Shown here: one piece after another, positions 8,914-53,968 of the stretch | Position numbering within the stretch: the stretch's first letter is position 1 | Layout: the number at the start of each line of letters is the position of its first letter | Assembly (NCBI GenBank): GCA_031459875.1 | Contig: JAVKHQ010000005.1 | Location: 39,584 to 103,583 of the forward strand | DNA from: Candidatus Fervidifonticultor sextus | GTDB taxonomy: Bacteria > Sysuimicrobiota > Sysuimicrobiia > Sysuimicrobiales > Humicultoraceae | Direction of reading: 5' to 3' | DNA: 64,000 nucleotides | The notes under the pieces: generated by a model | What the model saw: only the letters and a program-made list of their open reading frames with translations | Database searches by the model: none | What the model was told of the DNA's origin: nothing | Made by a program: the position numbers and the translations under genes

Positions 8914-10090
8914 TCTCGCCCGGCGCGATCCCAAGCGCGTCATCGGCCTGATCGCGGGAACCTCGGGCGACGGCGTAGACGCGGCCCTGGTCGAGGTGGC
9001 CGGCGCCGGGCTGCAGGCGCGCGTGCGGCTGGTCGCCGGGCTCACGCTGCCGTTCCCCCCTGACGACCGCGATGAACTCTTCCGGCTGTTCGATCCCGCC
9101 GCGGCCACCGTGGACCGGCTGTGCCGGTTCGACTTCAGGCTGGGCGAGCTCTTTGCCCAGGCGGCGCTGGCCGTGATGGCCCAATCCGGCCTGACCCCTC
9201 CGGAGGTGGACCTCATCGGATCGGCCGGACAGACGGTCTGGCACATCCCGGCCCCGCAGGGCGCGACGCTGCAGATCGGCGAGCCCGCGGTCATCGCCGA
9301 GCGGACCGGCCTGCCCGTCGTGGCGGATTTCCGGGTCGCCGACGTCGCCGCCGGCGGCCACGGCGCGCCGCTGGTCCCGTACTTCGACCTCGTCGTCTTC
9401 CGCCATCCCGCGCGGTCGCGCGCCGTCCAGAACATCGGCGGCATCGGCAACGTGACCTACCTGCCGGCCCGTCCGCCCGACGGGTGCGCCATCGACGACG
9501 TGCTCGCCTTCGACACCGGGCCCGGCACCATGGTCATCGACGCGGTCATCTCGGCGCTCACCGATGGGCGGGAGCGCTTCGACCGGGACGGCGCATTGGC
9601 CGGGGCCGGCCGCGTGGACGAGGCCTGGCTGGCCGACCTGCTGGATGACCCGTTCTTCCGCCAGGCGCCGCCCAAAACGACGGGCCGGGAGGTCTACGGG
9701 CAGGCCTTTGCGGCCCGCCTGCTGGAGGAGGGGATCCGGCGCCGCCTGATGCCGGAAGACATCGTCGCGACCGTCTCGGCGCTGACGGCCGACTCCATCG
9801 TGCGCGCCTACCGCGACTTCCTGTGGCCGCGGGGCGCGCCGGACGAGGTCGTGCTGTCCGGCGGCGGCGCCTACAACCGCTTCCTGCGCGAGCGGATCGC
9901 CCGGGGCGTGGGCGCGCCGGTGCGGCTCGCCGAGGAGTTCGGCGTGGACGGGAAACTCAAGGAGGCCATGGCGTTCGCCCTATTGGCCTCGGACGCGGTC
10001 GCGGGCCTGGCGACCAACGTGCCCCAAGCTACGGGGGCGTCGGGGCCGCGGGTGTTGGGCAAGTTCGTGCCGGGACCGCGCATGGTATAG
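8897..10090 (+). CDS. anmK: Anhydro-N-acetylmuramic acid kinase.
   Basis: N-terminus MRAVADLARRDPKRVIGLIAGTSGDGVDAALVEV is a typical AnmK N-terminus. ATG at 8897 overlaps the murQ 3' end. Confidence 0.85.
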   Translation: MRAVADLARRDPKRVIGLIAGTSGDGVDAALVEVAGAGLQARVRLVAGLTLPFPPDDRDELFRLFDPAAATVDRLCRFDFRLGELFAQAALAVMAQSGLTPPEVDLIGSAGQTVWHIPAPQGATLQIGEPAVIAERTGLPVVADFRVADVAAGGHGAPLVPYFDLVVFRHPARSRAVQNIGGIGNVTYLPARPPDGCAIDDVLAFDTGPGTMVIDAVISALTDGRERFDRDGALAGAGRVDEAWLADLLDDPFFRQAPPKTTGREVYGQAFAARLLEEGIRRRLMPEDIVATVSALTADSIVRAYRDFLWPRGAPDEVVLSGGGAYNRFLRERIARGVGAPVRLAEEFGVDGKLKEAMAFALLASDAVAGLATNVPQATGASGPRVLGKFVPGPRMV

Positions 10091-17084: not shown

Positions 17085-17885
17085 CTACTGCCGATCCAGC
17101 CACGCGAAAAAGTCTTTCTCGAACTCTTCCACCGGGCGACCGAAGACGGCCTCAAACTGGGTCGGGAAGACCGTGTCACCCGGCGCATAGAGCGCGATGA
17201 TCTTGGGCCACCCGGCGGTCTCGTGCAGGTAGATGCCCAGGGCTGCCGCGATGCGATAGAAATCCCCCAACGTCCTCGCATCCGGCGTCCCGATTCCGAT
17301 CTGCCGGATGGAGAAGGCAGGCTGGTTCTTCCTGGCCTGCTGGGACCGGGGGAGTTGCGTGGCCTTCACGTACGCCGGAAAGTTAATGACCCTCCGTTCG
17401 TCCATGACCTTCAGCTTGTGTAGCTCGGCCGGCCCTTCCCAGAAAGCAAAGGGAGTTCTGCGGCGATCCATCCGCGACTGGCGCTGGTACAGGTGGAACA
17501 TCTCGTGCGGGACGGTCCACCAAACCTGCAGGTCGGGCCGCGCGGTATAACTGCGAATGTACTCGAGGTTCAACGCGAAGGCCCCCAGGGCCGACTGACC
17601 GCTGTAGAGGTGGGATCGCCGCTCCGCGGTCGGCCGGTCGAACAACCCGAACTCCACGAGGACGTCGGCGAAGTCGGCCTTTGTGGCGCAGAGGTAGGCC
17701 TTTGGGGGCCCATCCAGCACCACGCCGAGCCTCCTCAGAGACGCCAGGCTGTGCAGCGTCGCCTGCTGGACGGCCTGGACCACGGCGGGCTCCACCTGGC
17801 CGCGCTGCACGATCTCGAACGGCAGTTGGGCGAGGGTCGGGTGGAGTGCCAGGGTCGTGGCGATTGCGCACACCACCAGGCTCAA
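17085..17885 (-). CDS. Secreted hypothetical protein with an HEXXH motif (putative zinc metallopeptidase).
   Basis: Signal-peptide-like N-terminus. VPHEMFHLYQ carries the HEXXH motif. TTG start. Confidence 0.55.
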   Translation of the reverse strand: MSLVVCAIATTLALHPTLAQLPFEIVQRGQVEPAVVQAVQQATLHSLASLRRLGVVLDGPPKAYLCATKADFADVLVEFGLFDRPTAERRSHLYSGQSALGAFALNLEYIRSYTARPDLQVWWTVPHEMFHLYQRQSRMDRRRTPFAFWEGPAELHKLKVMDERRVINFPAYVKATQLPRSQQARKNQPAFSIRQIGIGTPDARTLGDFYRIAAALGIYLHETAGWPKIIALYAPGDTVFPTQFEAVFGRPVEEFEKDFFAWLDRQ

Positions 17886-18118
17886 GGAGCGGCGGTGGGT
17901 CAGTCTTCTTGAGTCGTGCGTGATCGTAGGAAGTCCCCCCTCCGGTGTGACGTCGCGTTCTACGTCCTCCGGTCTACGGCGCCTCCAGGCGAGCCGCGAC
18001 GGATTCCGGAACGGGGTTCGTAAGTTGCAGGCTGAAGGCCCGCGACGAGCCAGGGCAGGATCGCCTGGCTGATTCCGTCCGCCATCATCGCCCCATCGGC
18101 CATCGCCGCGTGGCGCCG

Positions 18119-18168
18119 CCGGACCCCGCCAGTCCTGAGGGGGGCCCTGCCAGACGGGCGGGGTCCGG
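18119..18168 (-). terminator. 12-bp perfect GC stem (CCGGACCCCGCC / GGCGGGGTCCGG) with a 26-nt loop, 8 nt downstream of the PCu(A)C stop. Candidate terminator.
   Basis: Seen directly in the sequence; it has no U-tract. Confidence 0.35.
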
Positions 18169-18175
18169 TCGCCGC

Positions 18176-18691
18176 CTACGGCGCCGACATGCGCACGGGT
18201 ACCGAGATGGCCACCGCTCCCGCCCGCTCGAAGTGCAGCGTCACGGCGAGCCGCTCCCCCTCTTTGAGGTCGCGCTTGAGTCCCAGCAGCATGATGTGGA
18301 GCCCACCCGGACGCAGCTGCGCCCGTCCGCGAGCAGGGACCACGATGGCCGGCACCTTGTGCATGCGACTCATGCCGCCCTCCATGCGCGTCTCATGGAG
18401 TTCCACCGCGGCGGCGACCCCGGCGTCGGCGCGCAACAGCCGGTCAGCCTGCGAGCCGGTGTTGTGAATGACCATGTAGATCGCCGAGGCGCCAGGTCCC
18501 ATCTCCGTGCCTTTCCCATGGACACCGGCGGGTGCCGCGACGCCCGGCCGTGCCCAGGCCTTCTCGATCCTGATCGATGACGCAGGCGACGCGGCATCGC
18601 CCGAGATGGTGGCGGCTCCGATAAACACGGCAGCGGCAACGAGGGGCGCACCCGAGAGCCACAGGTGCCTCATCTGACGTGACAGGTACAT
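18176..18691 (-). CDS. Copper chaperone PCu(A)C (DUF461), intact copy.
   Basis: HETRMEGGMSRMHKV is the H(M)X10MX21HXM-type Cu(I) motif. Start chosen at the ATG 10 nt after an AAGGAG RBS. Confidence 0.8.
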   Translation of the reverse strand: MYLSRQMRHLWLSGAPLVAAAVFIGAATISGDAASPASSIRIEKAWARPGVAAPAGVHGKGTEMGPGASAIYMVIHNTGSQADRLLRADAGVAAAVELHETRMEGGMSRMHKVPAIVVPARGRAQLRPGGLHIMLLGLKRDLKEGERLAVTLHFERAGAVAISVPVRMSAP

Positions 18692-18745
18692 CTCTGGATC
18701 ACTCCTTTGCCAATCGGTCGCGACGCGAAGTCGGGCGTGTTGCAT

Positions 18746-19330
18746 CTAGTGCCTGAGCAGCTGACGGACGTCGTGTGCCACGTCGGCCGCGGTGGCCTCG
18801 TGGCTCACATTCAGACGCCAGCGTCCCTCCCGGTCGATGACGGGGACGTTCGTCGAGTGCGCTATGAGGTACCCCGCTGCGCTGTTGCGTACCGGGACCT
18901 TCTGGAACGCGGCGCCGAAGAATCGGTAGGTCGCGGCCAACAGATGCGGGGGGCCTGTCAGACCTACGAACTCGGGGCTGAACAGACGGAGGTACCGGTC
19001 GAGGAACGCCGGGGTGTCAACCTCGGGGTCGAGCGTGATGAACACGAAGCGGACTCGCGCGGCGTCCGTCCCCAGTATCTTGGCGACGTCCCGGAACATC
19101 CCCAGGGTGAGCGGACAGACGTCCGGGCACCTGGTGTAGCCAAAGAAGACCAGGACGACGCGCCCCCGTTGCTCGGCGAGGTTGAACGGCCGCCCGTGCT
19201 GGTCGCTCAGCACGAGCCTCGGGACCGGGCGCGCAGGGTCGAGTTCGCGGGCTCGGAAGCTTGGGCGGTGGCACGCGGAGAGGAGCAGCACGGCCAAGCC
19301 GCTGGCGATCCATCTGATCCATCGGGCCAT
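18746..19330 (-). CDS. SCO1/SenC-family copper chaperone (thioredoxin fold); likely lipoprotein.
   Basis: CPDVCP is the CxxxC motif. LLLSAC is a lipobox-like sequence. GGGAGG RBS 6 nt before the ATG at 19330. Confidence 0.8.
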   Translation of the reverse strand: MARWIRWIASGLAVLLLSACHRPSFRARELDPARPVPRLVLSDQHGRPFNLAEQRGRVVLVFFGYTRCPDVCPLTLGMFRDVAKILGTDAARVRFVFITLDPEVDTPAFLDRYLRLFSPEFVGLTGPPHLLAATYRFFGAAFQKVPVRNSAAGYLIAHSTNVPVIDREGRWRLNVSHEATAADVAHDVRQLLRH

Positions 19331-19425
19331 AACTAGCCTCCCGCGAAAGGTGTCTACCACGACGCCGCACCGCAACACGCCGGGAGTCGACGGCGTGGAG
19401 TGGCGGGCCGCAGTGGTGAGTCGGA

Positions 19426-19941
19426 TTAGGCTGGGCGGTGGGCTCGAGGCGGAGGGTCCGGAACGGGGAGGGGGATGGGCATGAGGCCCGGCGAGACCGG
19501 GCGGGCGACCCGTTCGGTCGGCGGTGGCGCTCCCGGCATCACTGTCGCTGGCGCCGTGGCGACGGCCAGGCCCGAGACGCTGAGGACCTGCGCGCCATGG
19601 GCGGTCCCGGGAAGGACGGACACGACACGCGGCAGTTCAGAAATTCGTCGGCTGCCGTGCGGGGGCCACGCCGCGCTCTTCCCGTTCTCACCATGATGTC
19701 CGGGGGATCCGCGCTGCCGGTCGTGGCCGTGGCGACGGTGGTGGGCGAGCGCGTCGGCGCGCTGCGCAGGCGTACCGCCGATCACCACGTGCAGGTGGTA
19801 CGGGTCGCGCTCCACCGCCTGCGTGTCGGCGACCGGGACGATCAGTCGCAAGACCATCGCCGGCAACGCAACCGCGGCCACAACCAGGAACGGACCCGGA
19901 CGGCTTGAGCGATCTGCCGGCGCCGCGCGACATGGGAACAT
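19426..19941 (-). CDS. Uncharacterized His-rich single-pass membrane protein, paralog 1 of 3.
   Basis: TM helix FLVVAAVALPAMVLRLIV, then DPYHLHVVIGGTPAQRADALAHHRRHGHD and a C-terminal PDPPPR. Conserved with the proteins at 46480-46998 and 48798-49277. Start uncertain. Confidence 0.5.
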   Translation of the reverse strand: MFPCRAAPADRSSRPGPFLVVAAVALPAMVLRLIVPVADTQAVERDPYHLHVVIGGTPAQRADALAHHRRHGHDRQRGSPGHHGENGKSAAWPPHGSRRISELPRVVSVLPGTAHGAQVLSVSGLAVATAPATVMPGAPPPTERVARPVSPGLMPIPLPVPDPPPRAHRPA

Positions 19942-20348
19942 GCCTGGCCGGTGTTCGACAGTGGTAGGATGAAGTCCTCCCCCCTTCCAACCCGATGCAG
20001 ACATGGACATCCGGACGACGGCCCGCGGCAAGCGCGATGGCACCATCGTGCGCCACCTGCAGCTCGCCCACAACGAGCGGGGTCCGCGGACCGGAATGCC
20101 CCGGGCCCGCGTCCTGTCCCGGCAATCCGGGCCAACCTGGGAAGCGCCCGGAACTCCAAGGTGGCGGGCTCACCGGCCCTCACGACGACAGCCCGGGATG
20201 TGGGAACCACCGCCAGGTCGGCGGAGAACGCCACGACGTCCCACGCGCCCGGCACCACCCGCAGGTGGGCCCTCCCCGTCGCGTGTCCCGTGGTCATTGC
20301 ACCGGCCCGCGCGTCATGGCAGTGTCCCAGCTTCGATCATGGTCCGTA

Positions 20349-20978
20349 TCAGGGCTTCTGGCTGATAGCCAGCCGCCCGTACCTCTCTGGAAGGAACACG
20401 CCCACGTTCCGCGGCCACCAGAAGCTGGGGCCACGGTCGTAGTTGTCCCAGTAGTGCAATCCGGTGGCCACCGTCCCGCCGAGTGCAACACCGATCTCCT
20501 CCAATGGGACCGACAGCTCGTACATCATGTGGCGCGCTGCGGGCGGGCCCATCGCCGCGCCCCGTGCGCGGCTGTCGAAGTGAAATGTCCGTCGGCCTCG
20601 CGCATCGATGCGGTCCGTGCGCAGCCGGCCGTCGCCATAGAGCCAGTAGCCGACCTCGCCCTTGAACCAGATGGCCATGTTGTCGAAGCCGGTGTGGGGA
20701 GGGCTGGACGCCGTGGTGTTGGTGATGTCGTGGATGGCGTCGACACCCACGTAAAGCCGCTCCGTATCGTTCATGACGAGGAAGACGCACCGCGCACCCC
20801 CATCGCGGCTGGCCAGGGTCAGGCGGGCCGCTGCCCGCCACTCGTCCTCTCCGACGACCCCGTCGATGTCAGGCGGCGTGACCGCGTAAGGACTCTGGAG
20901 CACCTCCTGCCCACCGGCTCCTCCCGCGAGGAGACCGGCGATCGCCAGAAGTGCGCCAGCGGCCCCGACCCGTCTCAT
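20349..20978 (-). CDS. Secreted hypothetical protein.
   Basis: Signal peptide MRRVGAAGALLAIAGLLAGGAGG; no recognised domain. Confidence 0.5.
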   Translation of the reverse strand: MRRVGAAGALLAIAGLLAGGAGGQEVLQSPYAVTPPDIDGVVGEDEWRAAARLTLASRDGGARCVFLVMNDTERLYVGVDAIHDITNTTASSPPHTGFDNMAIWFKGEVGYWLYGDGRLRTDRIDARGRRTFHFDSRARGAAMGPPAARHMMYELSVPLEEIGVALGGTVATGLHYWDNYDRGPSFWWPRNVGVFLPERYGRLAISQKP

Positions 20979-21037
20979 ATCACCTGCTCCGGGTTTGGGA
21001 CGCGGATGGGGGGCGTCCGTTCACGTTTGGTCCACCG

Positions 21038-21601
21038 CTATGGCATTCGTGGAATCTGCGACGCAGGCCAGAGACCATCGGCGGATCCCGCCGGGAAGAC
21101 TTGCAAGTAGTAGACCGTATTGGCTGGTACGGGCAGCGGCACACCCGTTTGTGTGTAGCCGCCAATGGCTAACCCAATGTGGTCATACACGGCGACGATG
21201 AAACCGGTCCTGTCGCTGAGAAGCCAGCGGAAGCTGGGGGTGCCATATACCTGCCACGCGGTCTGAAGGGGAGTGCCCAAGGCCACACCCTCGGCTGTAC
21301 GGAACCGGATCGCCTCACCAGCCCCCTGGAGCAGCAGGGCTACCACTTGATCGGTGTCGCGACGGACGAGGGCAACGAGCGCCCAGCGCTGTCCCTGCGG
21401 TCCGAACGTCCATCCTATGGCCGCGAGGGTCGGGTTGGCCGCCGCCCCCAGGTTCTGCGGGAGCCCCAGTTGCATGCGCAGTGCCGCGCCCGTCACGCCG
21501 AGCCGGTAGGGGCCGATGCGGTCCCCAGGTACCATCACCGAGTCCTCCGGCGTGGCGGCGGCGCCTGGGAGCCAGGCGAAGGTGGCGCCTGCCAGCGTCA
21601 T
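21038..21601 (-). CDS. Secreted hypothetical protein, paralog A (tandem with 21699-22181). Start uncertain.
   Basis: Shares PGDRIGPYRLG and FRTAEGVALG with paralog B. The long track ORF is truncated here so that it does not overlap paralog B. Confidence 0.45.
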   Translation of the reverse strand: MTLAGATFAWLPGAAATPEDSVMVPGDRIGPYRLGVTGAALRMQLGLPQNLGAAANPTLAAIGWTFGPQGQRWALVALVRRDTDQVVALLLQGAGEAIRFRTAEGVALGTPLQTAWQVYGTPSFRWLLSDRTGFIVAVYDHIGLAIGGYTQTGVPLPVPANTVYYLQVFPAGSADGLWPASQIPRMP

Positions 21602-21698
21602 GAGCAGAAGCGCGAGTCTCGTAGCGGGCGTCGAGCCGCCGCCGATCCGCCTGTGCGCAGGGTCGATGACGGGTGCTGGCGACCCAGGCGGTCTTTGG

Positions 21699-22181
21699 CT
21701 ACTGGGATTTGTGATCAAAGACCCCAATGGCAATGATCCTGCCCTCTTTGGTCTGCACATAGAGCCCAATTCTCCAGTAGGCGCGCGCTTCGACATTTCC
21801 CGGATATTGGTGGCGCCATTCCGGTCGACCGAAGCGGTCGAGCTCTGAACCAGGACTGCCAAGGCCGACGCCATCGGCCGTCCTGAAGACCCGGTTCGCC
21901 TCAGAGTCGAGGAGCGTCGCGGCCGAGACCGTGTGGGTCGCGTTGAAGAACGAGAAGTAGATACGCTTGTCCCGCCAGAGCATGCCGTAGGACTGAGGCA
22001 TGGTGGTCGAACCTCGTTCCCCGACCGACCCCATCAGGCCGATCACGCCGGCCAGCGTCATGCCCAGATTGTAGGGTCCGATGCGTTTGCCAGGGACGAT
22101 CAGGGTGCCGTCTTCAACCTGCGCAGCGGCCAATGTGTGCGCCGCCAGGATGCTGACGAGAACCGCGAGTCCTTTCCGCAT
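21699..22181 (-). CDS. Secreted hypothetical protein, paralog B.
   Basis: Signal peptide MRKGLAVLVSILAAHTLAAA. Contains PGKRIGPYNLG and FRTADGVGLG. Confidence 0.55.
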   Translation of the reverse strand: MRKGLAVLVSILAAHTLAAAQVEDGTLIVPGKRIGPYNLGMTLAGVIGLMGSVGERGSTTMPQSYGMLWRDKRIYFSFFNATHTVSAATLLDSEANRVFRTADGVGLGSPGSELDRFGRPEWRHQYPGNVEARAYWRIGLYVQTKEGRIIAIGVFDHKSQ

Positions 22182-22316
22182 GACGCCACTCCACGAGAAG
22201 GTCGCGCCCGGTCACCCGGTCAGCTGACGGCCTACCTGTCTTGAATTGTTCAGCAGGCCCGGACGGCCCGCAAGGAGAAACATTCGCAAAACTTCGCAGG
22301 TCGTGGGGGACATCCG

Positions 22317-41740: not shown

Positions 41741-42331
41741 CTATCGGCCCTCCAGGAGCGCTCGCGCGTCCGCCGCGAGGTCTGCGGCCAGAACGCCCCA
41801 TGGATACGAGAACCGGATCGTCCCGTGCCGGTCGATGAGGTAGATCGCCGTGGCATGGCCGATGCGGGCGTCCTCACCCGACCCGGCCGCCGCGTAGGGA
41901 GCGGGATAGACATTGAACGCCCGGTAGAGACGCGCCAGGACCTCTCGCGCGCCGGTGAGGCCGACGAAGTCCGGGTGGAAGATCGAAACGTACCAGCGCA
42001 ATCGCTCGGGCGTGTCGCGATCCGGATCAGTGGTGACGAAGAGCACGCGCACGTGCGCCGCGTCCACCCCGAGCAACGCCCGTGCCTGTCTGAGGGTGAC
42101 CAGCGTGGTCGGGCATACGTCGGGACAGAGCGTGTAGCCGAACGCGAGGAACACCACCATGCCTCGCAGCGCATCGAGCGAGAACGGGCGACGGTGACCA
42201 TCGAGCAGGGTGACCGCTGCCGGGAGCGGTTCGCGGACCGGCAGCCCGCGGAAGGCCGGTGGGGCCGCCCGCAGGCAGGCCCCACCCAGCAACGTCAGGC
42301 CCACGAGCGCGCAGGCCCACACCCCGCGCAT
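41741..42331 (-). CDS. SCO1/SenC-family copper chaperone (third, divergent copy).
   Basis: CPDVCP is the CxxxC motif; thioredoxin fold. Confidence 0.8.
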   Translation of the reverse strand: MRGVWACALVGLTLLGGACLRAAPPAFRGLPVREPLPAAVTLLDGHRRPFSLDALRGMVVFLAFGYTLCPDVCPTTLVTLRQARALLGVDAAHVRVLFVTTDPDRDTPERLRWYVSIFHPDFVGLTGAREVLARLYRAFNVYPAPYAAAGSGEDARIGHATAIYLIDRHGTIRFSYPWGVLAADLAADARALLEGR

Positions 42332-42332
42332 C

Positions 42333-42716
42333 TCAGGGGACCACCCGGAGCGTCGCCTGCATCCCGGCTTCCCGGTGCCCGGGGATGCTGCAGTACACCA
42401 CGTAGGCTCCCGGCGCCAACCGGGCTTTCACCTGCACGGTCTTGCCGGCAGGGAAGGGTTTGGCCTCCGCGACAATCTTCTTCGCCGCATTCTCGACGAC
42501 AAAGTCGTGCTCGACGGCTCCGGCGTTCCGCACAGTGAATGTGACCTCGCCGGCCTTCGCCAGCAGGTCCCTGGGTTCGTAGACGAACTCCCGGGCGACC
42601 ACGGTCACCGACAGGGAGGGCGAGGCGGGCGGCGGTGCCGGAGCCGCCGATGGCGTGTGTGCCGCGGTCATCCCCAGGATCGTCAGCGCCATGCCAACCC
42701 GGCGTACGATACGCAT
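42333..42716 (-). CDS. Small type-1 (blue) copper cupredoxin.
   Basis: Signal peptide; CSIPGHREAGM carries the C-x-P-G-H...M ligand motif. Confidence 0.7.
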   Translation of the reverse strand: MRIVRRVGMALTILGMTAAHTPSAAPAPPPASPSLSVTVVAREFVYEPRDLLAKAGEVTFTVRNAGAVEHDFVVENAAKKIVAEAKPFPAGKTVQVKARLAPGAYVVYCSIPGHREAGMQATLRVVP

Positions 42717-42745
42717 GCTGAACCCCTCCGATCTGGACCGCGCCG

Positions 42746-44266
42746 TCAGTGCGCCGGCCGCGGCTTGATGACGAGGACCCCGTTGCCACCCCAGGCGTCC
42801 GGCCCCAGGTGGACGTCCCCCGCCTTCCGCGGGGGAGAGACGGATAGGTCGACCACCGTGAGTACCGGCGCGTACTTGTTGGTCACGTAGGCCAAAAACC
42901 CGCCGCCCTGCTTGAAGCCGTAGGCCACGCCGTGGGCGCCCTTGTACGCCGGCACTTCGCTGACGACCCGAATCTTCGATGGATCGTCGTAGTCGACCGC
43001 GATCACGCTGGCGTTGGCGGTCCCGGTGTTGGCCACGACGACGTAGCGGCCGTCCGGGCTGAACGGCGACTGAATGGGCACGGCGCCGACCCGCACGATC
43101 TTGACCACCTTGGGGTTCTTCGGATCGCGCAGGTCCTGGAAGATCAGGCGGCCCTGGAGGAGCTTGTCGTGGGTCAACAACACGGTGGTGGTGACCGCGT
43201 AGCGCTTGTTGGGCGAGATCGCCGCGTACAGAGGCAGGTTGGCGCCGAATGCCTTCCCGTCGAGATCGGTCACCTTCGACAGGTCCACCGTGGTCAGCAC
43301 CTTCTCCGCGTCCAGGTCGATGATCGACATCTGCCCCGAGAGCGCGTTCGCGACGACCATGAGCTTGCCGTCGGGCGAGATCCAGCCGCCGTGCGGTCCG
43401 AGGGGCACCTCGATGTAGCGCACCGGGACCTGGGCCGCCGGTACGGCGGGATCCACCGCCTTGACGAGATCGAGCACGGCAATCCGGTTCGCCGCGTTGA
43501 TGGTCACCACGACCTTGCCCTGGGGCGTGGTGTGGGTGTGCGCGGGGGACTCGCCGACCGGGATGCGGTTCTTGACGATGCGCCGGGTCCGGGCGTCGAT
43601 GATGGTCAGGTAGTTCTGATGCCAGTTGGTCTGGACGACGTAGCGCTCGTCCCAGGAGACCATGGCGTTGTGCGGGTTGTTGAAGTCGCCGTCGATGACC
43701 GCCTTCACCTTCATCGTGGCGGCATCCACCACCGTGACGGTGCCCGGCGCCTCGCGGTTGGGTCGGGTCTGGAACTGCGTGTCCACCCACACCTCGCCTC
43801 GGCCTCGCACGCGCGGTGGCACCAGGCCGGTGGGGCTGGCCGGCGGCCACGGCTTGATGAACTGCGGCAGGGGGTTCGCGCCGACCGCGATCTGCCCGTC
43901 CATGTAGGGATGGATGGCGCAGACGTAGACGTAGACCCCCGGCTTGGTGAACTGCTGGCGCGCCGTGCCCTTGCGGCCCACGATGGTGATGGTCTTCGCC
44001 GGTTCGTCGAAGCCGGTGAGGAAGGTGATGGTGTGGAGCGTCCGGGCATCAGAGAACGACCAGACGACCTCGTCGCCCGGCTCCACGCGCAGCGTCTGTG
44101 GGAAGAACCACGGCGCGAACTCGCTGACGACGACGGCGTTCTTTGGCAGGGCGGGCGGTGGCGCGCCGCCCGGGGCCTCGGGCGCGGAGCGCGCGATCCC
44201 GGCCGGCCCGGCGATCACCGCGGCCGCGATGGCGAACACCAGCAGGCTCCTGCTCAGCGTCGGCAT
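42746..44266 (-). CDS. Secreted cupredoxin domain fused to a YVTN-family beta-propeller.
   Basis: N-terminal region YVYVCAIHPYMDGQ has the C-x2-H-x2-M cupredoxin site. This is followed by repeated YVVVAN / AVTTT propeller blades. Signal peptide after the ATG at 44266. Confidence 0.7.
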   Translation of the reverse strand: MPTLSRSLLVFAIAAAVIAGPAGIARSAPEAPGGAPPPALPKNAVVVSEFAPWFFPQTLRVEPGDEVVWSFSDARTLHTITFLTGFDEPAKTITIVGRKGTARQQFTKPGVYVYVCAIHPYMDGQIAVGANPLPQFIKPWPPASPTGLVPPRVRGRGEVWVDTQFQTRPNREAPGTVTVVDAATMKVKAVIDGDFNNPHNAMVSWDERYVVQTNWHQNYLTIIDARTRRIVKNRIPVGESPAHTHTTPQGKVVVTINAANRIAVLDLVKAVDPAVPAAQVPVRYIEVPLGPHGGWISPDGKLMVVANALSGQMSIIDLDAEKVLTTVDLSKVTDLDGKAFGANLPLYAAISPNKRYAVTTTVLLTHDKLLQGRLIFQDLRDPKNPKVVKIVRVGAVPIQSPFSPDGRYVVVANTGTANASVIAVDYDDPSKIRVVSEVPAYKGAHGVAYGFKQGGGFLAYVTNKYAPVLTVVDLSVSPPRKAGDVHLGPDAWGGNGVLVIKPRPAH

Positions 44267-44332
44267 GACGACACCCCCGTTCGTCAGGTGATCGTGCGGT
44301 CTGACAGCGTGCACTCGGACCTCTTGCATGGC

Positions 44333-45004
44333 TCATCTCGCCGCCTGGACGAACGTCCTCCATGTGCGCGCCGCGCCTGCGGCGGAGGCCGGCGCGTGGT
44401 CGGGACAGTCGATCCGCAGGGCGCGGTCGCCGAAGGCGGCGTCCACGAACGCACAGTGATGCGGGCGGGCGGGATCGGCGTGCACGTGCGGCCGAAAGTA
44501 CCGGCAGGTGACGCACATCCGGCTCGGGGCGATCTGCCCAGACTCCTGGAGGGCGCGGATCACCTTCACCAGGGCGCGCAGCAGGGCGGCCTGCTCGGTT
44601 ACCCCGAGCGTGTCGACCGCAGCGTGCACGGCTTCGCCCCAGCTCAACGCCCGACCCGCTTCGCGACGACCCGCGGGTGTGAGGACAATGAGCCGGCCAC
44701 GGCCGTCGCCACCGACGGCGTGCTTGGCGACAAGCCCTTTCCGCGCCAGGGTGGTGACCGCCTGGCTCGCGCTCGCCCTGGTGACGCCCAGCGCGGCCGC
44801 GACGGCGGAGAGGCGCTGGCCACCGGGATGGCGGCGCAACATGGTGAGGATCAGCCCCTGCGTCGGCGTGAGGCCGCGTGGCCCGGCGCCACGCCACGAC
44901 GCCTGCCGCAGCGCCAGAGCGATCCTGCTCAGGCCGGCGGTGACGCGTTGCCGCAGGGGCTCGCCGTCGACCTCAACCCGGGTGAACGCCGACCTGGAGA
45001 CCAT
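44333..45004 (-). CDS. MarR-family winged-helix regulator with a Cys/His-rich C-terminal tail; possible metal (copper) sensor.
   Basis: LTPTQGLILTMLRRH...LSAVAAALGVTRASASQAVTTLARKGLV is a MarR wHTH. The tail reads MCVTCRYFRPHVH...HHCAF...RIDCPDH. Confidence 0.65.
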   Translation of the reverse strand: MVSRSAFTRVEVDGEPLRQRVTAGLSRIALALRQASWRGAGPRGLTPTQGLILTMLRRHPGGQRLSAVAAALGVTRASASQAVTTLARKGLVAKHAVGGDGRGRLIVLTPAGRREAGRALSWGEAVHAAVDTLGVTEQAALLRALVKVIRALQESGQIAPSRMCVTCRYFRPHVHADPARPHHCAFVDAAFGDRALRIDCPDHAPASAAGAARTWRTFVQAAR

Positions 45005-45254
45005 GTTGGTTAAGTCTCCTAACGACTCGTTGCCTCCCGGGTTCGACACAGAGGTCGAGGTTCCTGCACGCCTCCGACGGACCGCGGAGGCACGCCAACC
45101 TTCGGGCCAGTGGACGCCCGCCAAGAGGGGGCCGCCACGGGCGCCGGCACCGGGGAGCATGATGTCGCTCTCCGGGACAGGGCCGTGGGTGATCCCGCGG
45201 GCGCGATTCCTCGGTTGGTCGGCGGGTGCGGGCCCGGCGCCGTCCGGCCGAAGG

Positions 45255-45764
45255 TCAGGGCGCCGCCATTCGCACCGGCACCCGGACCGCCACCGCCCCG
45301 GCCTGCTCGAAGTGCAGCGTCGCTGTGAACCGATCCCCCTCCCGAAGGTCGCGCTTGAGGCCAAGCAGCATGATGTGGAGGCCGCTTGGCCGCAGCGTCA
45401 CCCGGCCGCCCGCGGGCACCACAATAGCCGGCAGCTTGTGCATGCGACTCATGCCGCCCTCCATGCGCGTCTCGTGGAGCTCCACGGCGGCGGCAACGTC
45501 GGTCTCGGCACGCACCAGACGATCACCCCTCGGTCCGGTGTTGTGGATGGTCATGTAGATCGCCGACGTGCCGGGGCCCATGGCCATGGTGGTCCCGTGG
45601 GCACCGGCGGGAGCCGCGATGCCTGGCCGCGCCTAGGCGTCCTCGATGCGGATAGGCGAGGCCGGCGGCGCCGCTTCGCTGGCAGCGATGGCGGCCATGA
45701 ACACCACTGCGGTGAAGAGGGCCGTGCCTCGCAGCCACGAGATTCTCAAGCACATCAAGTCCAT
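45255..45764 (-). pseudogene. PCu(A)C copper chaperone paralog interrupted by an in-frame TAG at 45633-45635, where the intact copy has TGG.
   Basis: The single reading frame 45764-45255 encodes MDLMCLRISWLRGTALFTAVVFMAAIAASEAAPPASPIRIEDA*ARPGIAAPAGAHGTTMAMGPGTSAIYM...HETRMEGGMSRMHKL. It aligns residue-for-residue with the intact copy (...IRIEKAWARPG...). Confidence 0.6.
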
Positions 45765-45813
45765 ACTCATCACTCCTTTCCAGCCCGCACCAATGCCAAG
45801 TCGGGCGTCGAGC

Positions 45814-46389
45814 CTAGTGCCGCAACAGCTGCCGGATGTCGTGTACCAGGTCGTCCGCGGTGGCCTCGTGGCTCAGATTCAGACGCCAGCGGCCCTGCCG
45901 GTCGATGACGGCGATGTTCGCCGAGTGCGCCACGAGGTACCCCGCCGCGCTCTTGGGCACCGGGACCTTCTCGAACGCCGCGCCGAAGAATCGGTACGTG
46001 GTGGTCAGTGCGTCCGGGGGGCCCGCCAGGCCCACGAACTCCGGATGGAACAGCCGCAGGTACCGGTCGAGGAACGCCGGCGTGTCGATTTCCTGGTCCA
46101 CCGTGACGAATACGAAGCGAACCCGTGCGGCATCCGCCCCGAGCCTCTCGGCGACCTGGCGGAAGACCCCGAGTACGAGGGGGCAGACATCCGGGCACCG
46201 GGTGTACCCGAAGAAGATCAGGACGACCCGACCCCGCTGCCCGGCCAGGTTGAACGGGTGCCCATGTTGGTCGGTGAGCGTGAGCGCCGGCACCGGACGG
46301 GGAGGATCGAGCACGCGGCCCCGGAAGGTCGGGCGCTGGCAGGCTGAGACCAGCAGCACCAACAGGCCGACGGCGATCCATCTGGACAT
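45814..46389 (-). CDS. SCO1/SenC-family copper chaperone, second copy (about 80% identical to 18746-19330); lipoprotein-like.
   Basis: CPDVCP; lipobox-like VSAC. GGGAGG RBS 6 nt before the ATG at 46389. Confidence 0.8.
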   Translation of the reverse strand: MSRWIAVGLLVLLVSACQRPTFRGRVLDPPRPVPALTLTDQHGHPFNLAGQRGRVVLIFFGYTRCPDVCPLVLGVFRQVAERLGADAARVRFVFVTVDQEIDTPAFLDRYLRLFHPEFVGLAGPPDALTTTYRFFGAAFEKVPVPKSAAGYLVAHSANIAVIDRQGRWRLNLSHEATADDLVHDIRQLLRH

Positions 46390-46479
46390 GGGTGACCTCC
46401 CTCGAAAAGCGTTCAGCGCGGCACACGTCACGGCGTCCCCGCCGATGGGGCGGAGCGCGGGCCGCAGTGACCTCGGTGA

Positions 46480-46998
46480 CTAGGCGAGAGGGTCTGGTCG
46501 GGGCGGGGGATCCGGGACGGGAATGGCGACCCGGGCGACGCGCGGCGGGGCCAGACCTGCGATCTGTCCGGTGGCCCGGGGGGCGGGGGGCCCCGCAGGC
46601 GCCGCCACCGTTGCGACCGACAGGCCGGTCGTGCTCAGGACCATCGCGCCCGAGGCAGTCCCGGGAAGGACCGACACGACGCGCGGGACTTGGGGGTCGC
46701 CCTGGGCCATTCGTTGGGTCTGCCCCCCGCCCGTCCAGTGTCGTCCCGGATGTCCGGCGGAGCCGTGCGGTCTGTCGTGGTCGTGGTGACGGTGGTGGGC
46801 GAGTGCTTCAGCGCGCTGCGCGGGGGTGCCGCCGATGACGAGATGCAGGTGGTAGGGATCGCGCTCCACCGCCTGCGTGTTGGCGATGGGCAGGATCAGC
46901 CGCGCGATGGTCACCAGCAACAGGCCCGTGCCCGCAGCCTGGCGTGGCGACGAGCGATCCCAGCGGGCGACCAATGTCGCGCGAGGCACGAGCATCAT
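46480..46998 (-). CDS. Uncharacterized His-rich single-pass membrane protein, paralog 2 of 3.
   Basis: TM helix LLLVTIARLILPIA, then DPYHLHLVIGGTPAQRAEALAHHRHHDHDRPHG and a C-terminal PDPPPRP. Confidence 0.5.
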   Translation of the reverse strand: MMLVPRATLVARWDRSSPRQAAGTGLLLVTIARLILPIANTQAVERDPYHLHLVIGGTPAQRAEALAHHRHHDHDRPHGSAGHPGRHWTGGGQTQRMAQGDPQVPRVVSVLPGTASGAMVLSTTGLSVATVAAPAGPPAPRATGQIAGLAPPRVARVAIPVPDPPPRPDPLA

Positions 46999-47011
46999 GC
47001 TGTACCCGCTC

Positions 47012-47041
47012 ATTATAGTCGGTCGCCGCACCAGCGTGCAA
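47012..47041 (-). promoter_or_regulatory. Near-consensus sigma-A-type promoter: TTGCAC, 18-nt spacer, TATAAT (on the minus strand), driving the His-rich/SCO/PCuAC array. The first ATG of that gene lies about 8 nt past the predicted TSS.
   Basis: Seen directly in the sequence: reverse complement of GTGCAA at 47036-47041 and ATTATA at 47012-47017. Confidence 0.45.
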
Positions 47042-47127
47042 CGCACAGAGGGGAGGAGAGGGGCGGACGCACCCGGGGAAGTCACGTCCCGTCGCCGGGA
47101 GAGATCGCGGCAGGTCGCGTGAACTCG

Positions 47128-48042
47128 TTAGCGCGTCTTCAGGTAGCGGAGAAGCCCCAGCGCGCTCAGCCGCGTGGACATGATCGTCTCGAACCGGGCC
47201 ACGCGGTCTGGCCCGTCGAGCCGGGCGGCTTCGACCGCCATCACGTGGCGCATCCGGCGCGCGATCGCGTCTTCATCAGCGCCGTCCTCCAGGGCCACGC
47301 GGACCAGTTCCACCGCCGCGTGCAGGCGCTGCTGCAACTGCGCCAGCAGCTCCTCGACCCAGGTGTGCGCGCCGAAGTGCGTCAGCAGGAGCCGCCGCGC
47401 TCCAAGCCCCTGCAGGCGCCCGATGGTGGCATCCCACGCCGGGACGTCGAGTTCGGGGGGTGGGGTCGGGGGGCGGACGTAGCGGGATCCCGGCAGCGCC
47501 ACGCCGGCCGCGTCCCCGGTGAAGAGGTCCCCGGAGGCGCGATCGAAGTAGACGACGTGATGACGGGCGTGGCCGGGGGTATCGAAGACGGCCAGCCGAC
47601 GCGACCCCAGCAACACCTCCGCCCCCTCGCCGATGACGCGGATCCGCTCGTGGGGCACCGGGGCCACCTCGCCGAAGAGCCGCTCCAGGTCCGCGCCGTA
47701 CAGCCGCCGGGCGCTGGCCATCAGCCGCGAGGGATCCGCCAGGTGGGGCGCGCCCACCGGGTGCACGTAGACCTCCAGATGCGGGAACCGACGCACGAGG
47801 ACGCCGGTGGCGCCCGCATGGTCCAGGTGAATGTGGGTCACGGCCAGGGCCTGGAGGTCTTCGGGCTCCACCCCCGCGGCCCGCACGCTCTCCAGGAGGG
47901 TCTCCACGGTAGACGCCGGCCCGGTCTCGATCAGGGCCGGCCGGTCGCCCGTCAGCAGGTAGGCGCCGATGGCCTGCGGGGTCCCTTCGTAGTCGGTGTC
48001 AATCAGAACGAGATCGTCGGCCAGGCGTTCGATGCGCGGCAT
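47128..48042 (-). CDS. MBL-fold metallo-hydrolase.
   Basis: THIHLDHAG carries the HxHxDH motif. Confidence 0.8.
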   Translation of the reverse strand: MPRIERLADDLVLIDTDYEGTPQAIGAYLLTGDRPALIETGPASTVETLLESVRAAGVEPEDLQALAVTHIHLDHAGATGVLVRRFPHLEVYVHPVGAPHLADPSRLMASARRLYGADLERLFGEVAPVPHERIRVIGEGAEVLLGSRRLAVFDTPGHARHHVVYFDRASGDLFTGDAAGVALPGSRYVRPPTPPPELDVPAWDATIGRLQGLGARRLLLTHFGAHTWVEELLAQLQQRLHAAVELVRVALEDGADEDAIARRMRHVMAVEAARLDGPDRVARFETIMSTRLSALGLLRYLKTR

Positions 48043-48090
48043 GGGTCGTCCCCCGGTGAGCGTCCGGCATCACAATAACACAGCCGGATG

Positions 48091-48099
48091 TGGTATGCT
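48091..48099 (+). promoter_or_regulatory. Extended -10 element, TGgTATGCT, in the divergent region, driving the DUF3105 / CopC / CopD plus-strand array.
   Basis: Seen directly in the sequence. Confidence 0.4.
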
Positions 48100-48143
48100 C
48101 ACCTGCGAGATTGCCACGCGAGCCTCAGGTGAGGGGTTGCGGC

Positions 48144-48794
48144 ATGTCACCAGGCGGCAAGGCTACCCGGGAGGCGAAGCGACAGCGCCGTGAGGCGGCG
48201 CTCGCGGCCCGGCGCGAAGAGCAGCGTCGGCTCCAGGCCCGGCGGCGACGGCGGGCGCTGGCCGTCTACGGGGGCATCGCCTTGATCGTGGTGGCCGGCG
48301 TGGGGTTGCTGACGCTCTCGGCGCTCCGCCCTCAGTCCAGCATCTTGGGTGCCATCGGCGGCTTCGGGAAGCCGTCTGGCCTGGAGGGGGTCCAGGTGTT
48401 TGCGGACCAGGGCGCGGCCCACATCACCCTGGGCCAGGCGCACCCTCCGTACAACTCCAATCCGCCCACCTCGGGATGGCACACTCCCTTCACCGCCCCC
48501 TGGGGAGTGCACCGCACGTCGATCGCGGACGAGATCATCGTCCACAACCTGGAGCACGGCGGCATCTGGATTTCATACAGGGACGCATCCGACACGGCGC
48601 TGGTGGAGAGGCTGGAAGCCCTGGTGTCCCGCTACCGCTCCAAGGTGATCCTGACGCCGCGGTCCAATAACGACAGCCGGATCGCCGTGGCCGCCTGGAC
48701 GCGCCTGCTGAAACTCGACGAGTACGACGAGCGGAAGATCGTGGCCTTCATCAACGCCTTCAAGAACAAGGGACCGGAGATGGTCCCTGACTGA
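48144..48794 (+). CDS. DUF3105 domain protein with an N-terminal Arg-rich segment and a TM helix.
   Basis: TM helix LAVYGGIALIVVAGVGLLTL, then GWHTPF...HNLEHGGIWISY. Confidence 0.65.
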   Translation: MSPGGKATREAKRQRREAALAARREEQRRLQARRRRRALAVYGGIALIVVAGVGLLTLSALRPQSSILGAIGGFGKPSGLEGVQVFADQGAAHITLGQAHPPYNSNPPTSGWHTPFTAPWGVHRTSIADEIIVHNLEHGGIWISYRDASDTALVERLEALVSRYRSKVILTPRSNNDSRIAVAAWTRLLKLDEYDERKIVAFINAFKNKGPEMVPD

Positions 48795-48797
48795 GCG

Positions 48798-49277
48798 GTG
48801 GAGGACCGGCGGCTGATGGAGGCTGCACGTTGCGCCAGGGCGGCGGCCGTGGTCACGCGCCCGGTCCGAACGTCTCTGCTCCCCGTGTTCCTGGTCATCG
48901 TCCTTCTTGGTGCTTTCGATCCGGGTGCGGGGGAGCGGGGTCCTTCGCACGCACACATCGTAATCGGTGGCACCCCGGACGAGCAGGCGCGAGCCCTCGC
49001 TGCCCATTTGCGGGGCGCGCACTCGTCGGCCACCTCCCACGCCTGGCATGTGCTCTTCCGGGCCTCCGACGAGGCGACAGACCACCCCCACGTGATCTCC
49101 ATCAGCACGGGTGCGGTCGGTGCCTCCGTCCTCGGAGTCGGCGACGGGACCATGGTGGCCGCGCCCGCCAGCCGGGTGCCCCGCGCACCGCTGTCCGGCC
49201 GGGTTGTGCCCCTGCAGTCCGCGGCGCCGGCCGAAGCCGATCGGACCGTCCCTGATCCGCCTCCTCGCCTCACCTGA
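48798..49277 (+). CDS. Uncharacterized His-rich single-pass membrane protein, paralog 3 of 3 (divergent).
   Basis: TM helix LLPVFLVIVLLGAF, then PSHAHIVIGGTPDEQARALAAHLRGAH and a C-terminal PDPPPRLT. Confidence 0.45.
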   Translation: MEDRRLMEAARCARAAAVVTRPVRTSLLPVFLVIVLLGAFDPGAGERGPSHAHIVIGGTPDEQARALAAHLRGAHSSATSHAWHVLFRASDEATDHPHVISISTGAVGASVLGVGDGTMVAAPASRVPRAPLSGRVVPLQSAAPAEADRTVPDPPPRLT

Positions 49278-49378
49278 ACCGTCCGGCTACACACATGGCA
49301 CGCTGGCGGACGGGCATCGCCCCCGGAGGTCGTGGTCCCGCCTGCGGGTCGATGCCCAGATCATGGGAGGTGGGCACT

Positions 49379-49813
49379 GTGAGAAGGCAGCTCCTTGTGC
49401 TGGCCCTGTGCGTCCCCCTGACCCTGGGCGTCATCGCGCCAGCCGTTCTCGGTCACCAGACGAAGGTGGTGGGCGGCAAGTACCGGGTAATCGTGGGGTT
49501 TGTCCGGGAGCCCGCCTTCACCGATGAGCGCAACGGCCTGGACCTGATCGTGCGCCGGGTTGAAGACAATGCCCCCGTGGAGCACCTCGAACGCAGCCTC
49601 TCGGCCGAACTGATCGCCCCAGGAGGCCAGGGCAGGCGGGCGCTGCGGCTTCGGCCGCAGTTCGGCCGGCCCGGCTACTACACCGACGACTTCATCCTGA
49701 CCCGTCCGGGTGTCTACCAGATCCGCGTGTGGGGCGTCATCGCTGACGTGCGCTTCGACGAGACGTTTGAGTCCCATGAGGTCAGGCCGCTCAGTGAGTT
49801 GCGGTTTCCGTAG
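49379..49813 (+). CDS. Putative periplasmic copper-binding protein (CopC-like / YcnI-like beta-sandwich). Assignment tentative.
   Basis: Signal peptide, then GHQTKVVGGKYRV. C-terminal GVYQIRVWGVI resembles the CopC G-Y-V-W-V pattern. GTG start with a GGGAGG RBS. Confidence 0.4.
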   Translation: MRRQLLVLALCVPLTLGVIAPAVLGHQTKVVGGKYRVIVGFVREPAFTDERNGLDLIVRRVEDNAPVEHLERSLSAELIAPGGQGRRALRLRPQFGRPGYYTDDFILTRPGVYQIRVWGVIADVRFDETFESHEVRPLSELRFP

Positions 49814-49814
49814 C

Positions 49815-50273
49815 ATGCGGGGATCGTTTCCCGAGACTGTCCTGGTCGGCGCCGCCCTGGCCCTCCTGGGGGCCGGGGCGGCTGCCGCCCACGCCTACCT
49901 CAGGGCCGCGGAGCCGGCCGAGGACAGCACGGTGGCGGTCGCCCCCAGCGAGGTTCGGCTTGTGTTCAGCGAACCCATCGAGGTCCGGTTCAGTACCTTC
50001 AAGGTCTATCGGGTGCCCGCTGATCCGGGGTGGGATCGGCGTCGCCTCAACGCGGCTGCAGGCGCCCTGGTCTCGGAGGTCCTTCGGCGTCGCGGTGACG
50101 AAGCCGACCGGGCGGATGCCGGCCTGGCGACGGCCGCACGTACGACCACCACCGTGACGCTACGCCTGCGTCCCCATCTGGCTCCCGGCGCCTACGCGGT
50201 GATGTGGCGGGTGCTGTCGATCGACACGCATGTCACCCAGGGCTTCTACGTGTTTCGGATCAGACCGAACTGA
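49815..50273 (+). CDS. copC: Copper resistance protein CopC.
   Basis: Mature N-terminal His (AAAAHAYL), EVRLVFSEPIEVRFSTFKVY, and GAYAVMWRVLSIDTHVTQGFYVF. Confidence 0.85.
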   Translation: MRGSFPETVLVGAALALLGAGAAAAHAYLRAAEPAEDSTVAVAPSEVRLVFSEPIEVRFSTFKVYRVPADPGWDRRRLNAAAGALVSEVLRRRGDEADRADAGLATAARTTTTVTLRLRPHLAPGAYAVMWRVLSIDTHVTQGFYVFRIRPN

Positions 50274-50294
50274 AGGGACGCGTCACCCGATCTC

Positions 50295-51998: not shown

Positions 51999-52003
51999 CC
52001 TGA

Positions 52004-53038: not shown

Positions 53039-53074
53039 GCGCCACCAGGCGTCCGCCCCCGGGCCGCGCCGGCC

Positions 53075-53102
53075 TTGCGCCGCCTGGGTTGCATGCTATA
53101 AT
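53075..53102 (+). promoter_or_regulatory. Promoter: TTGCGC, 16-nt spacer, TATAAT, upstream of rplY.
   Basis: Seen directly in the sequence. Confidence 0.5.
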
Positions 53103-53155
53103 GAACGCCGTTCGGGCCCCGATCCTCGGGGCTCGACTGTTGGAGGGAACCGCAC

Positions 53156-53893: not shown

Positions 53894-53968
53894 TCGCGCG
53901 CCGGGGCCACCGCCCCCCTGCGCCGCGCACCGGGTGCTCGCCCGAACGCGGATGGATGTCTTTTCGCC

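Follow-up and report, generated by a model that had tools for sequence, protein, structure and literature searches.

A second SCO1/PCuAC copper-chaperone module, probably a recent arrival, in a Ca. Fervidifonticultor genome

We analyzed a 64-kb stretch of DNA from Candidatus Fervidifonticultor sextus, hereafter called the window, that carries two copies of a three-gene module related to bacterial copper chaperones. All coordinates are window positions, and contigs related to the window are designated by L and a number. In both copies, a gene for a small histidine-rich (His-rich) membrane protein is followed by genes for SCO1 and PCuAC, in the same order and on the minus strand. We call the copy at 18176-19941 copy A and the copy at 45255-46998 copy B; a preliminary description of the DNA called them the "remote" and the "island" copy, respectively. 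The G+C content of the window is 70.7%. Both SCO1 proteins are recorded on one 117,180-bp contig of a metagenome-assembled genome (MAG) that NCBI labels Armatimonadota: SCO1-A is identical to P0008, annotated there as 'SCO family protein', and SCO1-B is P0011. Among named organisms, Ca. Fervidifonticultor tertius, of the phylum Ca. Sysuimicrobiota/CSP1-3, is nearest; the relevant members of this phylum are MAGs described from hot springs (PMC11604079). The features that we discuss are collected in Table 1.

Table 1. Positions of the features in the window
Feature	Position	Strand	Details
3' remnant of disrupted 380-aa gene, last 12 codons and stop	17975..18013	-	junction alignment with L018 9860-9899
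Inserted ~2.1-kb block carrying copy A	18014..20078		replaces ~770 bp of the 380-aa CarboxypepD_reg-like gene
GC-rich stem-loop directly after the PCuAC-A stop	18104..18183	-	perfect 12-bp arms 18119-18130 / 18157-18168
PCuAC copy A, intact, 171 aa from ATG 18691	18176..18691	-	PF04314 114 bits; longest open reading frame starts at 18745
SCO1/SenC lipoprotein, copy A, 194 aa	18746..19330	-	PF02630 124.2 bits; CPDVC; lipobox LSAC
His-rich small membrane protein, copy A, 171 aa	19426..19941	-	50% identical to copy B; invariant residues kept
5' remnant of disrupted 380-aa gene, aa 59-121	20079..20284	-	tblastn of L018 protein: 73% over 67 aa, E 1e-22
Third, distant SCO1 paralogue	41741..42331	-	PF02630 115 bits; 45-47% identical to A and B
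PCuAC copy B, pseudogene or nonsense allele	45255..45770	-	in-frame TAG 45633-45635; frame translation and alignment
SCO1/SenC lipoprotein, copy B, 191 aa	45814..46389	-	PF02630 122.4 bits; CPDVC; lipobox VSAC
His-rich small membrane protein, copy B, 172 aa	46480..46998	-	identical to P0002
Promoter-like TTGCAC-18 nt-TATAAT	47011..47040	-	~13 nt upstream of His-rich-B ATG; function predicted from sequence

The two copies align by blastn in a single high-scoring segment pair of 1,688 columns (75.06% nucleotide identity, E = 0), which pairs 18180-19849 with 45259-46903. The similarity is collinear across the whole module, with gene order and strand conserved for all three genes, and is far above chance. 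It is therefore not limited to generic SCO and PCuAC motifs, and the pairing of the PCuAC and His-rich genes that the preliminary description had proposed is found as well, since both lie inside the alignment. The proposed protein identity of about 80% reflects a real similarity of the modules but is a generous figure: identity is 77% for SCO1 (191 aa, counted from the proposed start codons; 74% when BLASTP is run with the longer open reading frames), 69-70% for PCuAC and 50-51% for the His-rich protein. Pfam families PF02630 (SCO1-SenC; cutoff 22.8 bits) and PF04314 (PCuAC; cutoff 29.4 bits) are matched in both copies, and Pfam gives nothing for the His-rich open reading frame of either copy. 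The same gene order occurs once per contig in L002, L010 and L026 (all Ca. F. tertius), in L007, in L014 to L016 and in contigs from JGI, and in relatives the module usually adjoins a divergently oriented Fur-family gene with ZnuABC. The module is a lineage-specific three-gene operon, and A and B are true paralogous copies of it on one contig.

SCO proteins are characterized by a CxxxC motif and a conserved distal histidine (PMC7558416). The cysteine pair is present as CPDVC in SCO1-A, SCO1-B and a third SCO1 paralogue in the window. The histidine of a conserved 'AHS' segment, presumably the equivalent of the structural ligand, is found in A, B and all close homologues. Both SCO1-A and SCO1-B have an N-terminal hydrophobic segment that ends in a lipobox, and they are predicted to be tethered to the membrane with their globular domain outside the cytoplasm. 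The ribosome binding sites are spaced identically, as had been claimed (GGGAGG, a 6-nt spacer and ATG in both copies). A lipobox is likewise present in both, but the two are similar rather than identical (Table 1).

PCuAC-A has an AAGGAG ribosome binding site upstream and a signal peptide contiguous with its domain. A Cu(I) site of the form H(M)x10Mx21HxM has been defined for PCuAC proteins (PMC7558416), and a regular expression locates Hx10Mx21HxM at the same position in PCuAC-A and PCuAC-B. The preliminary description considered the remote PCuAC gene to be intact and the island gene broken, and indeed an in-frame TAG occurs only in B. At this site, A and all relatives have TGG, encoding the tryptophan of a motif IRIExxWARPG. 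The TAG splits the signal sequence from an otherwise intact copper-binding domain, and the residual 110-aa open reading frame still matches PF04314 at 120.5 bits. In comparisons with orthologues, the ratio of nonsynonymous to synonymous substitution rates (dN/dS) is 0.25-0.37 for PCuAC-B and 0.26-0.29 for PCuAC-A. Because the ratio is not elevated for B, its lesion would be recent; the TAG is either such a lesion or a variant or error.

Copy A lies in a block that interrupts another gene. Synteny with L017, L018 and L020, as determined with blastn, stops at 18010 and restarts at 20116, and all three of these relatives have an intact gene of 380 or 382 aa at the insertion site. L017 and L018 are the closest relatives, with 93% nucleotide identity to the flanks in the window, and L020 is more distant. 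Orthologues of the gene adjoining A (17085-17885) are 92% identical in L017 and L018 and 77% identical in L020, and the flanks on both sides of A are syntenic with L018 and L020 for more than 10 kb. The insert has the same orientation as the operon of the disrupted gene. Since the 380-aa gene is intact both in the closest relatives and in L020, the insertion of A is recent.

Other changes are visible in the recipient operon, which is decaying (20079-22200, compared with L018 6258-9899). The 264-aa paralogue of a 266-aa HExxH-motif protein is absent, a 242-aa gene is detectable only for residues 24-121, and the 380-aa gene has lost its first 58 codons. We also observed a 14-nt direct repeat with 13 of 14 positions matching, ACGGGCGGGGTCCG (18154-18167) and ACGAGCGGGGTCCG (20073-20086). 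One copy is in an arm of the hairpin that follows PCuAC-A, off the left junction, and the other is at the upstream junction of the insert. The repeat may be a footprint of recombination, and it also fits chance in GC-rich DNA.

The GC-rich hairpin that had been noted after copy A was confirmed, and its 12-bp arms form part of a longer stem. Its minimum free energy is -61.6 kcal/mol over 84 nt (z = -4.55), and 0 of 200 shuffled sequences fold as well; no U-tract follows it. Long GC hairpins equivalent to this one occur directly 3' of PCuAC in L002, L014 and L007 (z from -3.5 to -5.8), and there is no equivalent 3' of copy B (z = -0.38). Because relatives carry such hairpins after PCuAC, we regard the hairpin as belonging to the module and as having come with copy A. 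It is probably the module's own terminator or an mRNA-stabilizing hairpin. A scan for sigma-70 and terminator consensus sequences around copy A detected no promoter and no U-tailed terminator.

Copy B, on the other hand, has the surroundings expected from relatives. It is directly followed in the window by genes for MarR, a beta-propeller-cupredoxin protein and a cupredoxin, and in L014 and L026 the single module is located ~7 kb upstream of the same three genes, a region that has 85-87% nucleotide identity between the window and these relatives. On the opposite side, a CopC gene and a CopD-cytochrome c fusion lie ~3 kb from B, and both are near the module in a JGI contig as well. The synonymous divergence (dS) between the window and L026 is 0.37 for SCO1-B, compared with 0.34 for the flanking beta-propeller gene and 0.53 for the flanking MarR gene. 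A promoter-like TTGCnn-17/18-TAnnAT, which in B is close to the consensus and which is located ~10-13 nt before the His-rich ATG, is common to B, L002, L007, L014 and L016, and none was found upstream of A. No Shine-Dalgarno sequence precedes the His-rich-B ATG, which suggests that this mRNA is leaderless or nearly so. The sequence of the region is reproduced by an independent Logan contig (L001), which is 100% identical over 46315-54324. Because neighborhood, promoter and dS all match the relatives, we consider B to be the vertically inherited, positionally orthologous copy. B sits in a conserved metal-handling neighborhood and is not a recently acquired island, so that the roles implied by the names in the preliminary description are inverted: the "island" copy is the resident and the "remote" copy is the newcomer.

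Some details of the neighborhood of B differ from those of its relatives. In comparison with L014 and L026, ~6.7 kb are missing between PCuAC and MarR, and B abuts MarR directly (45000-45254). In the relatives, this interval holds unknown genes of 134 and 437 aa, a second ZnuA-ABC set and a metallophosphoesterase gene. The CopD protein with the C-terminal cytochrome c domain (PF05425 and PF00034/PF13442) is encoded at 50295-51998, and the same block is near the module in relatives; upstream of it are CopC (49710-50273) and two small open reading frames that have no Pfam match. L002 (~900-925) and L014 (~9235-9260) have a sequence resembling a Fur/Zur box, TGATAATCGTTCTC, in the interval that separates the His-rich gene from the divergent Fur-family gene. 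Because neither copy in the window has a Fur-ZnuABC neighbor, the module is probably regulated in another way in this genome.

Given a resident copy and a recently inserted one, it might seem most natural that the second was made from the first, as the term intragenomic duplication in the preliminary description implies. The term is correct insofar as the two are paralogous copies in one genome. They also share a contig, their gene order and the sequence and spacing of their ribosome binding sites, and the module evolves faster than its neighbors (B has 77% nucleotide identity to the L014 module, compared with 85% for the adjacent MarR-cupredoxin genes). One could therefore propose that B was recently duplicated to the remote site and that both copies then diverged very rapidly. 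However, the divergence is difficult to reconcile with this idea. Between A and B, dS is 0.66 for the His-rich gene, 0.55 for SCO1 and 0.66 for PCuAC, which is 2 to 9 times the values for seven flanking genes compared between the window and the empty-site relative L018 (0.07-0.28). The dN/dS comparison that had been suggested gives 0.56, 0.27 and 0.32, respectively, and ratios in this range indicate purifying selection on all three gene pairs rather than runaway divergence. Moreover, each copy is nearer to that of another species than to its counterpart: the single SCO1 of Ca. F. tertius shares 83% identity with SCO1-A and 86% with SCO1-B, which share 77% with each other. In a SCO1 tree, A is basal to a clade with 94% support and B groups inside this clade with other species, and in a tree of the three concatenated proteins A and B are sisters in only 1 of 300 bootstrap replicates. 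Thus the copies are neither closest to each other nor separated by a dS within that of their flanks, as they would be after a recent segmental duplication. The divergence of A from B is too great for a fresh duplicate, and we consider recent duplication with rapid divergence to be very improbable. We also considered gene conversion between A and B and rejected it. The sliding-window profile of A-B identity is shaped like the profiles of A and of B against orthologues, and the longest exact A-B run is 39 nt, in the copper-binding motif, as against 42-44 nt between orthologues.

Because A and B diverged long before this genome parted from its closest sampled relatives, the most likely origin of A is lateral acquisition from another member of the same clade. 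Our preferred explanation of the whole is therefore that B is resident, that A was recently inserted from a related lineage and that B has been partially displaced; we think this probable, although with considerable reservation. An old paralogue could instead have moved within the genome: the ancestor of the clade would have had two modules, the relatives would have lost one of them, or their MAGs would lack it, and A would have been relocated recently. The star-like phylogeny with A at the base of the clade is compatible with such a history, as are the G+C content and GC3 of the insert, which are host-like (69.6% G+C, compared with 67-69% in the flanks), and the lack of mobile-element hallmarks in our searches. 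The recipient locus also has several other deletions or rearrangements, and so is recombinationally active. However, every related contig has a single module, a genome scan gave one locus in Ca. F. tertius, and among 5.8 billion proteins no SCO1 is closer to A than 83%, A's cluster having a single member. We consider relocation to be less likely than lateral acquisition, and rather doubtful overall. It is also conceivable that A or B derives from a co-occurring related population through an error of assembly or binning, and that the TAG is, separately, a consensus error or minor allele. The MAG comes from hot-spring metagenomes with several related Sysuimicrobiota species (PMC11604079), L001 stops inside SCO1-B, at 46315, and we retrieved no independent contig for the region of A. 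Yet both junctions of the insert lie within remnants of one host gene, whose flanks have the extensive synteny described above. Copies with 75% identity are too different to mislead an assembler, and the 26 kb from A to B is ordinary housekeeping DNA in which the gene order of relatives is retained up to ~32 kb. An assembly chimera is unlikely on these grounds, and we give an artefact of this kind little credence.

It is important to emphasize that several observations weigh against recent lateral acquisition of A. The codon usage of the insert, like its G+C content, matches the host. There are no tRNA genes in the window, no integrase or transposase domain was found in the ~60 open reading frames scanned, and searches for flanking repeats and mobile elements around both copies returned only short GC-rich matches at chance level; none of the usual signs of a mobile element or genomic island (integrase or transposase, tRNA target, terminal repeats, attC-like site) was seen. 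A is roughly equidistant from every sampled module (dS 0.49-0.84), so that no donor was found. The phylogeny used neighbor-joining only and took in 6-7 modules (His-rich profile scans of genome and metagenome contigs gave 2 loci each), and the branching order within the ingroup is weak, with supports of 14-24%. The relatives are incomplete MAGs and so may hold a second copy of A type. The TAG and the junctions of the insert are known from a single metagenome assembly, and exact matches to PCuAC-A, to SCO1-A (P0008) or to the residual open reading frame of 110 aa in PCuAC-B were sought in independent contigs and not found. Finally, the window encodes no CuA-containing enzyme (client oxidase or NosZ) that could be a target of the module.

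Despite these caveats, lateral acquisition and partial displacement suggest the following course of events. By homology, the module would supply copper, or prepare it by redox chemistry, for extracytoplasmic copper centers, e.g., CuA of haem-copper oxidases, NosZ and possibly the neighboring cupredoxins. B would have been inherited vertically, and its PCuAC gene would recently have gained the amber codon. The divergence of A from B long predates the split from the closest sampled relatives. A would have entered after this split, on a 2.1-kb cassette that is poor in promoters and carries a hairpin of its own, and taken the place of the middle of the 380-aa gene. We infer a related, unsampled lineage of Sysuimicrobiota as the source of A, with illegitimate recombination as the route of entry. 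Expression of A would occur by read-through and, having the only intact PCuAC gene, A would functionally replace part of the resident operon.

The third SCO1 gene of the window lies outside of the duplicated module, and its product has no lipobox. Next on the minus strand come genes for a small cupredoxin (42333-42750) and a 527-aa protein, the whole extending up to 44329. The 527-aa protein has an N-terminal cupredoxin-like region and a beta-propeller like those of YncE and cytochrome d1. The region 41741-44329 may be a dedicated set of a chaperone and its clients.

The first gene of the module is its most interesting lead, because its family is unmodelled and has copper genes as neighbors in two unrelated architectures. 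The protein of copy B is recorded as 'hypothetical protein QN168_04125 [Armatimonadota bacterium]' (P0002). Copy A's protein consists of an N-terminal transmembrane helix, the motif DPYHLH..GGT..H, a His-rich linker and a C-terminal VPDPPPR, and its dN/dS with respect to homologues is 0.44-0.68. No protein was returned for it from the public protein collection, and the gene therefore apparently has not been called. In L026, too, no gene is called at the position of the His-rich gene, which suggests that annotation sometimes misses it.

Searching 1.84 billion cluster representatives with a profile, we found 115 clusters (counted at 50% identity) with E <= 1e-3, of which 56 have E <= 1e-10. The members are small (~74-220 aa), except for a protein of 3,281 aa that matches weakly over an internal part. 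An alignment of 36 sequences exhibits an N-terminal transmembrane helix, DPxHxHxVxGGT…H, a variable linker that is His-rich in the clade of the window, RVxS and a (D/E)PPPR that ends 2-5 residues from the C-terminus. The columns H50, H52, G56, H69 and P164-166 are invariant and R167 is nearly so, and both copies in the window keep all of these residues. Scans of the 36 members with Pfam and NCBIfam gave only scattered noise in single members, and a profile search of PDB sequences gave no match below E = 0.05; we detected no similarity to YcnI/DUF1775, to CopC or to any Pfam, NCBIfam or PDB entry. AlphaFold2 gave a confidence (pLDDT) of 48 with 8 sequences and 66 with 36 sequences (predicted template modeling score 0.31), and was confident only for the transmembrane helix (pLDDT ~90), one short helix and the C-terminal tail, the rest being disordered.

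Distant members of the family in L011 (5893-9113) and L023 (1632-4394) are encoded upstream of a gene for a 214-aa protein, which has no Pfam match, and a YcnJ-like CopC-CopD-YtkA fusion. This context is a second, independent association of the family with copper trafficking. A role in extracytoplasmic copper handling may reasonably be proposed from these gene contexts. A broader proposal is more speculative, and we offer it tentatively: the His-rich proteins might form an undescribed copper-handling family that captures copper or passes it to SCO1/PCuAC or to CopC-CopD, with the cassette and its hairpin moving as one unit from one related genome to another without recognizable mobile-element machinery. 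In this proposal, the proteins may be single-pass membrane proteins with three invariant histidines, and often a His-rich linker, that partner with SCO1/PCuAC in Sysuimicrobiota and with YcnJ-like CopC-CopD importers in other lineages. If the His-rich protein were indeed a copper-binding partner, it would be an extra component for the bacterial pathways that assemble CuA and cuproproteins.

Operons of SCO1 and PCuAC and paralogues of these genes are well known, and the duplicated module is in itself ordinary. Adjacent genes, as here, encode Sco1/PCuAC of Thermus thermophilus (CuA assembly in the ba3 oxidase), SenC/PccA of Rhodobacter and ScoI/PcuC of Bradyrhizobium. The module in the window resembles these pairs also in combining a membrane-tethered, thioredoxin-fold Sco protein (CxxxC and distal histidine) with a secreted PCuAC (Hx10Mx21HxM). 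However, it is headed by a conserved third gene, that for the His-rich membrane protein, its SCO1 is a predicted lipoprotein rather than anchored by a transmembrane segment, and no target enzyme was identified in the window. In Bacillus subtilis ycnKJI and Streptomyces sco-ecuc-copCD, operons that link copper acquisition of the CopC/CopD type to chaperones, we see parallels to the distant His-rich members upstream of a YcnJ-like fusion and to the location of B, 3 kb from CopC/CopD; the His-rich protein differs from these systems in its lack of similarity to YcnI/DUF1775 or CopC.

In Paracoccus denitrificans, senC2-pcuC-Pden_4445 serves NosZ, and there are several Sco/PCuAC paralogues per genome (PMC7558416). 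The genome studied here likewise has more than one set, with a clustered gene of unknown function, and the window even has a third SCO1. As for the Paracoccus paralogues, specialization to different copper centers is plausible. In contrast to P. denitrificans, one PCuAC in the window appears to have been inactivated. The second set was recently inserted into another gene and is not beside a client enzyme.

Overall, then, the chaperone biology is known and ordinary, with a modest evolutionary twist. A complete chaperone operon inserted in another gene, with the empty site in three relatives, is a cleanly documented case, and one in which a probable xenologue would be mistaken for a duplication if similarity were the only guide. 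The closest parallel to the twist is xenologous or paralogous gene displacement: the newcomer, A, holds the only intact PCuAC, and the resident PCuAC-B has an apparently recent nonsense codon. It looks as though displacement were in progress, with the resident PCuAC beginning to decay. Unlike in full displacement, the SCO1 and His-rich genes of both copies remain intact and subject to purifying selection.

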